Shown: positions 22,009 to 22,120 of the stretch, one piece after another | Layout of the letters: each line of letters begins with the position of its first letter | Position numbering within the stretch: position 1 is the first letter of the stretch | Source of the DNA: a virus | Lineage: Duplodnaviria; Caudoviricetes | Length of the DNA stretch: 64,000 nt | Direction: 5' to 3' (one strand) | IMG/VR virus record: IMGVR_UViG_2841454579_000002 | Coordinates: 1-64,000 of that record | Notes under the pieces: model-generated | Seen by the model: only the letters and a program-made list of their open reading frames with translations | Databases searched by the model: none | Told to the model about the DNA's origin: nothing | Made by a program: the position numbers and the translations under genes

Positions 22009-22120
22009 ATGGTGCTTTGGTGGAATCTTAAATCTGCCCGAACAACACTAACCAAAGTGGCGGTCTGATGAATGCTGGGCGAGGAATGAGGACAGGGATT
22101 AAGATTCCCCAAAACACCAT
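22009..22120 (-). ncRNA. Rod-shaped RNA C with a pyrimidine-rich internal loop
   Basis: About 24-bp closing helix AUGGUGUUUUGG-GGAAUCUUAAUC / GAUUUAAGAUUCC-A-CCAAAGCACCAU; G-U wobbles favour the minus strand. Confidence 0.65.

Follow-up and report, generated by a model that had tools for sequence, protein, structure and literature searches.

What is the long hairpin encoded on the minus strand at positions 22009-22120 of IMG/VR record IMGVR_UViG_2841454579_000002, and what might it do for the phage that carries it? The initial annotation of this record, of which positions 1 to 64,000 were analysed (the window; 64,000 nucleotides (nt)), had described the hairpin as a rod-shaped RNA in its own right, whose unpaired loop is antisense to the Shine-Dalgarno (SD) sequence of early and RNA polymerase (RNAP) genes and was proposed to silence them. 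The present analysis revealed that the rod is the 3′ domain of a structured non-coding RNA of ~280 nt (about 21998-22280, minus strand) and not a free-standing small RNA (sRNA). Core and rod together are a new family of phage non-coding RNA, present in a few marine phages and without a counterpart in Rfam. From folds and alignments we could establish how this RNA is structured, which strand encodes it, that it has homologues and that it is built from modules. As to function, we favour, at a probability of roughly 55%, a reading in which the rod is a 3′-terminal stem-loop, that is, a conserved handle or terminator hairpin presenting a variable apex.

The minus strand of 22009-22120 folded into a single long hairpin with a minimum free energy of -46.6 kcal/mol (z -6.43). 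None of 200 shuffled sequences (mean -24.2 kcal/mol) was as stable, and the plus strand folded less well (z -3.47). The helix, earlier estimated at about 24 base pairs (bp), was indeed long, but its lower part measured 22 bp with one bulged A. The rod, its surroundings and the adjoining core were composed of the following parts:
22009..22120, minus strand: rod hairpin (5′ arm 22120-22099, 3′ arm 22031-22009)
22098-22032, minus strand: variable rod apex of ~67 nt, left unaligned by covariance model R2
22021, minus strand: bulged A in the 3′ arm, seen in the fold
22109..22118, minus strand: 5′ strand of the rod base, GGUGUUUUGG, with UUUGG/CCAAA invariant in 8 rods and the adjacent pairs covarying
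22011-22020, minus strand: 3′ strand of the rod base, CCAAAGCACC, pairing with GGUGUUUUGG
22002..22008, minus strand: U-tract UUUAUUU immediately 3′ of the rod, read from the sequence
22115..22127, minus strand: small hairpin P4, CACCA-UCA-UGGUG, read from the sequence
22125..22280, minus strand: core ('module B'), matched by covariance model R1 at 47.2 bits (E 6.7e-12)

The U-tract was followed by AAGGA and then by an ATG at 21990, which placed the rod ~18 nt ahead of the next start codon. The rod sequence thus has the hallmarks of an intrinsic terminator, in that its hairpin contains G+C and runs directly into a U-rich tract in the transcribed orientation; a simple terminator scan gave no call at the rod. 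The 22-bp helix also reaches the length needed by RNase III (~20 bp or more). The 3′ strand of P4 forms the first bases of the 5′ arm of the rod, so the pairings of P4 and of the rod base are mutually exclusive.

The rod could not be regarded as a stand-alone unit, as had been proposed, since it continues a structured RNA that begins near 22280. It lies in a gap of 285 nt free of open reading frames (ORFs; 21993-22277), and the entire gap folded at z -4.95. The model R1, which was built without the window sequence, recognised the core just upstream. The core consisted of a 5′ hairpin P0, a stem P1 (GUGCC/GGCAC), a stem P2 (GGUGAG/CUCACU) with the loop GUAACGAA, the junction UGUAAUAAACCGUCC, a stem P3 with a branched insert, and the linker CAGGCCAAU. 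A 39-nt stretch of the core directly 5′ of the rod had 93-95% identity to an unannotated gap of the Alteromonas phages AD45-P1 to P4 and 94-97% identity to two N4-like contigs of IMG/VR, L034 and L035. The consensus of the four non-window copies contained 51 pairs, of which 9 carried compensatory changes, and its conserved words were the P2 loop GURACGAA, the junction KUAAUAAAYCGUYCCUG and the linker CAGGCCAAW, followed by P4 and a long rod. Fold statistics and homology to models built without the window thus agree on a structured RNA, and this part of the initial annotation was confirmed. In the window (22199-22237, minus strand) and its homologues, the P2 loop read GUAA or GUGA, both of the GNRA type, and changed together with the C or U of the junction AAAYCGU; the near-identical L034 and L035 differed exactly at these loop and junction positions. 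This joint change hints at a tertiary contact in a core that may fold by itself.

No known family could be assigned to the RNA. Rfam 15 gave no match at E <= 10 over 21980-22310 and two chance-level matches in 19000-30000, while on the homologous loci tRNA-Met alone was matched. A full-text literature search found no report of a core-plus-rod RNA, and the terms 'non-coding' and 'intergenic' were absent from the text of the AD45 paper. Mimicry of the RNase P S-domain, raised by the similar words GUGCC..GUAACG..UAAACCG..GGCAC, was rejected at the sequence level, as local alignment of the core to the host rnpB (located with RF00010) scored 25 against 23.3 +/- 4.0 for shuffles.

Homologous rods were identified using R2, a model of linker plus rod that was likewise built without the window and was run with filters off. 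It matched 22003-22137 on the minus strand with 31.4 bits (E 7.5e-6) and leaving the 67-nt apex unaligned; on the plus strand it reached 6.1 bits. Core-plus-rod units were present in L034, L035, the same-genus prophage G024, AD45-P1 and AD45-P3, and the core was followed by the rod in all five core-bearing lineages (the window, L034/L035, G024, AD45-P1 and AD45-P3). Rods without a recognised core were the second rod of AD45-P1 and both rods of G033, another same-genus prophage. The R2 scores were 151 bits for L034 and L035, 135 and 56.6 bits for the AD45-P1 rods, 74 bits for G024, and 35.4 bits and a weak 12.8 bits (E 0.33-0.88) for the G033 rods. The core of G024 was reduced (23.8 bits), with P2 missing and P1 changed compensatorily to GUGUC/GACAC. 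Among 80 N4-like loci of IMG/VR, R1 found L034 and L035 only; a match in L057 (17.7 bits, E 0.011) had no core on inspection and was not counted. The unit was located downstream of dUTPase in 5/5 N4-like genomes. The annotated start of the AD45-P1 gene AD45P1_00295 (L001 2400) fell within the first rod of that phage, and a downstream ATG with AGGA ahead of it looks the more plausible start.

Wider pattern scans added little. The rod-linker pattern retrieved at least 116 stretches from viral sequences, of which L114, L115 and L002 only were genuine, and scans for the core pattern in metagenome and genome contigs returned 17 and 10 stretches, respectively, all unrelated on inspection. True relatives may have been missed because the scan pattern demanded a G at a position occupied by T in L034 and L035. 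A 25-nt match in G012 lay in coding-looking sequence and was attributed to chance. About a dozen metagenome contigs, mostly from one seawater assembly (L005-L008, L010-L012, L014-L016, L019 and L020), shared a conserved stretch of ~150 nt around GTGACGAATCTCTYGTAATAAATCG, which was unrelated to the rod RNA.

Base-pair conservation was assessed in eight sense-strand rods taken from the model-fitted alignment A8, after L032 (a duplicate of the first AD45 rod) and seven reverse-strand or weak rows had been dropped. Across 21 pairs, 162 of the 163 lettered cells were standard and 14 pairs showed compensatory changes, while UUUGG/CCAAA and one A-U pair were invariant. A single purine bulge followed CC on the 3′ strand in 8/8 rods. 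The wobble cells comprised 14 G-U against 1 C-A, which identifies the gene-strand RNA as the selected object, because the 14 G-U cells would become mismatches on the opposite strand and in a cruciform formed by the DNA. The minus strand, as had been annotated, is therefore the functional one. A run of at least four U followed five of the eight rods, the first AD45 rod was followed by UUU, and neither G033 rod had such a run. A matching CAYCC/GGGUG pair preceded the rod in L034, L035, AD45 and G024.

The apex demonstrated the opposite pattern. The rods of L034, L035, AD45 and G024 had a common inner hairpin with UAACCA(A)UAGUUAU, to which the apex of the window, unique in its genome, was unrelated. 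The 67 nt of the window apex could not be aligned with those of the other rods, and its CCUC was found neither in a scan of six other rods nor, on visual inspection, in the second G033 rod. Conservation in the homologues tracked the base of the helix and neither the loop nor the frame of a 30-amino-acid (aa) ORF within the rod; the loop, to which the initial annotation had tied the function, is not conserved. The annotation had itself named a non-conserved loop as refuting its proposal, so this outcome speaks against a conserved anti-SD role of the rod.

The rod RNA shares its surroundings with two further structured elements, which were placed as follows:
22465..22630, minus strand: 'module A', a tRNA-like RNA with two T-arm-like hairpins, read from the sequence
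L035 8150-8235, L034 10077-10162 and L233 4115-4200: 'module C', a hairpin of ~85 nt (z -3.2 to -5.2) that heads the island in relatives

Module A, ~160 nt long, contained the T-arm-like hairpins GGGUUCGAUYCCC and GGUUCGAGUCC and had copies at L035 8300-8450, L001 2600-2745 (minus strand), L233 4265-4420 and L232 6800-6945 (minus strand). Its acceptor-like stem showed compensatory changes between lineages, as judged by eye, and it received no call from ARAGORN or Rfam. Module A stood free, 5′ of the core, in the window, L035, AD45-P1 and G024, and was enclosed by the second rod of G033. Module C carried AAUCCUCA directly past its 5′ arm, the complement of GAGGAUU, the early-gene SD of the relatives. 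By reading, its counterpart in the window (~22640-22700, minus strand) appeared reduced to a stem, with the apex lost.

The phage itself provides the genomic context. The window corresponded to G000:C1:2218428-2282427 of a bacterial genome of 5.0 Mb in two contigs and, judged from its gene content, carries an integrated N4-like phage: it encoded a T7-like RNAP as two subunits (RNAP1 and RNAP2), a plus-strand ORF of more than 2134 aa that leaves the window at its right end, and a tyrosine integrase with an Arm DNA-binding domain at 1-1269 (minus strand), the end of the middle-gene arm. RNAP2 (23695-24888, minus strand) matched 814 phage records with a top identity of 44%, and nearer relatives (53-73% identity) occurred in metagenome contigs and in Alteromonas and Salinimonas assemblies. 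A single-sequence RNAP2 search of viral contigs gave no match, but an alignment-based search did find relatives. RNAP2 was present in three of 79 genomes of the genus, G024 and G033 being the only others, and in one of 401 genomes, G000 included, of a family-level sample. A related N4-like genome was located inside a 3.77-Mb chromosome contig (G033:C1, ~1.707 Mb), and both it and the window phage appear, from their sequences, to be temperate; integrated N4-like proviruses have been described before, according to the accessible portion of PMC10654107. The second contig of the assembly (G000 C2; 77,443 bp) resembled an N4-like genome or a plasmid in size. The genes surrounding the rod were on the minus strand, and the neighbouring ORFs had no Pfam or PHROG function and no counterparts in the relatives. 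Canonical terminators on the minus strand at 23692-23673 (just past RNAP2) and 20551-20532 (past the ORF at 20559-21032) flank the operon that contains the RNA island, which is probably part of the middle operon. Metagenome relatives at 92-96% identity spanned the element.

The sequence match that had suggested SD silencing could be reproduced. The loop and the sites concerned were located as follows:
22081..22092, minus strand: internal loop UCCUCAUUCCUC, a tandem anti-SD-like motif, phage-specific
28321..28327, minus strand: GAGGAAU SD ahead of the ATG of the first early gene
27703-27709, minus strand: GAGGAAU SD ahead of the ATG of the second early gene
27062-27068, minus strand: GAGGAAU SD ahead of the ATG of the gp2-like gene
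26337-26343, minus strand: GAGGAAU SD ahead of the ATG of RNAP1
24893-24899, minus strand: GAGGAAU SD ahead of the ATG of RNAP2
20516-20522, minus strand: GAGGAAU SD ahead of the ATG of the winged helix-turn-helix (wHTH) gene

The heptamer AUUCCUC (22081-22087) was unpaired in the minimum free energy fold, with a mean unpaired probability of 0.93 in contexts of 112, 283 and 601 nt, so its predicted accessibility held. An open stretch was therefore present, but the one-sided loop of 16 nt first described shrank to UCAUUCCUC (9 nt) plus CC past one weak G pair; CUGUCC (22095-22090) was paired with GGGCAG above the lower helix (unpaired probability 0.02-0.23). All six GAGGAAT sites proved to be true SD positions, 4-8 nt 5′ of ATGs opening ORFs of 91-397 aa. 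GAGGAAT had 14 copies in the window where 6.6 +/- 2.4 were expected, a count reached in 0/100 shuffles, whereas ATGAGGA, named as a further target motif, was not enriched (9 copies against 7.4 +/- 2.7 expected). The six minus-strand sites shared the extended leader ACUAU(N)GAGGAAU. A leader of the form ACUAU(N)GAGGA(A/U)U was common to early/RNAPII genes across the clade (window 28327, 27709, 27068, 26343 and 24899; L035, L034 and L234/L233); it is longer than an SD requires and could serve as a signal in the promoter or leader or as the target of a regulator. Duplex energies of the loop with the six ribosome-binding regions ranged from -9.6 to -18.8 kcal/mol, while a window-wide scan with a similar probe had a mean of -9.2 (sd 4.1), with unrelated sites reaching -29. 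At 28403-28417 (minus strand), in the divergent intergenic region 5′ of the first early gene, CCCUGUAAUUCCUCG formed a near-repeat of the rod loop CCCUGU(CCUC)AUUCCUCG. This site was rejected as a plus-strand target, as its adjacent ATG opens just 4 codons and it ranked ~25th in the duplex scan.

We consider it possible but unlikely that the early/RNAPII genes are blocked in translation by trans pairing of their GAGGAAU (and AUGAGGA) sites with the loop UCCUCAUUCCUC, causing early-to-middle shut-off or lysogen immunity, an outcome that would be compatible with the handle-plus-apex reading if the loop is the apex. Beyond the accessibility of the loop, its case rests on a motif common to six true SDs, five of them within the 3.4-kb early/RNAPII region, and AAU lies outside the usual 16S pairing, so that the extended motif calls for an explanation. 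The early genes of L035, G024 and L034 used ACUAUGAGGAUU (5, 4 and 2 genes, respectively) and module C there bears AAUCCUCA, whose AUCC had an unpaired probability of 0.89-0.99 in L035 and G024. GAGGAAU and GAGGAUU differ by one base, and AUUCCUC and AAUCCUC differ correspondingly, though on different carrier hairpins. A further point is that the counterpart of module C in the window seems to be without its apex. The probable membership of the island in the middle operon would also suit shut-off. Against these points stand the lack of CCUC in the other seven rods, the paired state of AAUCC in module C of L034 (0.09-0.17 unpaired), and the mixed SDs of G033, which has no matching loop. The background controls for the matched pair in the relatives were weak: of the 34 N4-like loci in which one SD heptamer dominates, 10 had a non-coding complement of it, and the extra AAUCCUC of L035 was simply part of a T-arm. 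Pairing is limited to 7-9 nt, and the energies of the six targets were not outliers in the duplex scan. A scan of the minus strand from 22120 to 23800, upstream of the rod, yielded no sigma-70-like promoter and hence no sign of expression in a lysogen. What survives of the silencing proposal is hence the structured RNA, its strand, the accessible loop and the six SD matches; conservation of the loop, outlying energies and a lysogen promoter were not found.

The other explanations fared less well. The RNA might instead act in cis as an attenuator, in which the core senses a signal and P4 (CACCA/UGGUG) competes with the last rod pairs by the U-run and so tunes read-through. This is quite improbable, even though the GGGUG strand can pair exclusively with either the upstream CAYCC or the downstream CAYC(C) in the window, L034, L035, AD45 and G024, P4 shows one compensatory change (CACCA/UGGUG against CACCC/GGGUG), and a rod with a U-run ~18 nt ahead of a start codon fits such a device. 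The downstream genes are not conserved (neither 50,697 phage records nor the related loci contained a relative of ORF136), and the rod of L035 is succeeded by a mini-ORF and a further tRNA-like element. Core-less rods exist (the second of AD45 and both of G033), a good U-run is missing in 3/8 rods, and no riboswitch family of Rfam was matched. The outer ends are conserved around an interior that varies, AD45-P1 and G033 have two rods each, and one rod encloses another module; these features would also befit an element acting as DNA, whether a cruciform, a protein-binding palindrome or a mobile inverted repeat resembling a miniature inverted-repeat transposable element. The wobble asymmetry, which would turn into 14 mismatches in a cruciform, the single copy in the 5.0-Mb host genome, the fixed position of the rod past the core in five lineages and the compensatory changes of the inner helix make this very unlikely.

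Two alternatives raised by the initial annotation are scarcely credible. A hydrophobic 30-aa ORF (22028-22120), which had been suggested to be concealed by the rod as a type I toxin-like peptide, does exist, but its ATG lies inside P4 and the rod base and has no purine-rich SD on its 5′ side (caggccaattcaccatc). The other rods, inspected without an ORF list, showed no comparable ORF, and conservation follows the helix rather than the reading frame, so that the toxin interpretation was not borne out. The plus-strand GAGGAAUGAGGACAGGGA contains several GGA motifs, as expected of the proposed CsrA sponge. That transcript would be antisense to all genes in the rod's arm of the window, the R2 scores (6.1 against 31.4 bits) and the wobble pairs both favour the minus strand, and the GGA motif is missing in the homologues; the wobble asymmetry in particular argues against a sponge.

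In the handle-plus-apex reading, the RNA would be transcribed along with the middle-gene operon of the integrated N4-like phage. Its handle would comprise the 10-bp base GGUGUUUUGG/CCAAARYACC, a bulged purine in the 3′ strand and 10-12 further pairs that drift compensatorily, terminating in the window phage in a U-run. From this arrangement we infer termination or processing, protein binding and an activity of the apex: the handle may set and protect the 3′ end of the RNA, either because transcription partly terminates there intrinsically or because the long helix is processed, or both, and it could be the recognition site for some protein. The apex would be the exchangeable, displayed part, represented by a tandem CCUC loop in the window, a UAACCA hairpin in most relatives and a tRNA-like domain in one relative. 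Several observations weigh against this reading. Both G033 rods are without a U-run and the first AD45 rod has UUU only, so termination cannot be a universal role, and a strong terminator lying ~18 nt ahead of a start codon would deprive the genes beyond it of transcription. A partner protein was not found. ORF136, ORF96 and ORF54 all lacked conservation in the relatives. The family is small (~5 lineages, with L034 and L035 near-duplicates), the pair table rests on an alignment fitted to the model, and sense and antisense folding energies across the rods gave no consistent preference for the sense strand.

A bolder version of this reading, which we regard as unlikely, would make the RNA of these temperate N4-like phages and of the AD45 phages a Ro-independent counterpart of Y RNA, in which a phage or host protein grips the bulged, conserved 21-bp helix and the apical effectors can be swapped, one of them being the anti-SD loop of the window. 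The effectors would then be the tRNA mimic, the UAACCA hairpin and the tandem anti-SD loop of the window, the last shutting off translation of the early/RNAPII genes that have the lineage-specific leader ACUAU-GAGGAAU. The anti-SD unit would have shifted between carriers (module C in the relatives, the rod here), tracking the one-base change of the SD.

Like intrinsic terminators and the long 3′ stem-loops of phages, of which T7 T-phi is an example, the rod is a stable hairpin with an immediate U-run at the end of a transcription unit, from which read-through would feed the downstream genes. It differs from them in its stem of ~22 bp with a large structured apex, in the conservation of the base sequence and bulged purine across phage groups, and in the rods (3/8) without a good U-run. 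P1 C4 and P4 CI are small antisense RNAs in phage immunity; the rod resembles them as a small RNA of a temperate phage in which exposed loops are complementary to ribosome-binding sites or their vicinity, but its complementarity spans 7-9 nt, its targets are scattered instead of belonging to one and the same operon, its loop is not conserved, and it lies in a middle-gene island rather than an immunity region. Early shut-off that acts on SD sequences is also known from systems such as T4 RegB, a nuclease and thus a protein; the logic of shut-off through a common SD-type motif would be similar here, with an RNA loop proposed in place of the protein.

YrlA-like RNAs have been reported in phages, as far as the available part of Chen et al. 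(2014, PMC4201824) describes them. The rod shares with the Y RNA and YrlA described there a long bulged stem with a variable or tRNA-like module, and the tip of the second G033 rod bears two T-arm-like hairpins; a tRNA-like tip was seen in this single homologue, a weak match, and the window rod lacks such a tip. The YrlA and Y RNA models of Rfam gave no match on the rod loci, and the motif GNCGAA(N0-1)G, given in the accessible text of PMC4201824, was not seen in the rod base. The G033 stem extends the acceptor-like end. TROVE/Ro60 (PF05731) was not found in the phage's own genome (G000), with positive controls in D. radiodurans and B. thetaiotaomicron. By analogy, the rod may work similarly to Y RNA without being a member of that family. 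In the N4-like Pseudomonas phage LUZ7, short, abundant putative sRNAs, some thought to be processed, are described in the consulted part of Putzeys et al. (2022, PMC9163698); these lie in the late intergenic region orf69-orf70, unlike the island of the rod, and the likeness is one of description.

If the structural reading holds, these phages possess a new family of structured RNA that combines a compact core with a modular rod and in which a 39-nt part of the core has stayed 93-97% identical between otherwise divergent phages. Its neighbours in the island are aberrant tRNA-like RNAs, the phage is a temperate representative of a group long thought to be strictly lytic, and the rods are a clean and testable instance of one handle with variable cargo. 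Should the anti-SD apex be inactive, the rod would still be a useful marker for the RNA island. Should it be active, it would represent an RNA counterpart of protein-mediated early shut-off and would offer a way into the control that an N4-like prophage exerts over the injected-polymerase cascade.

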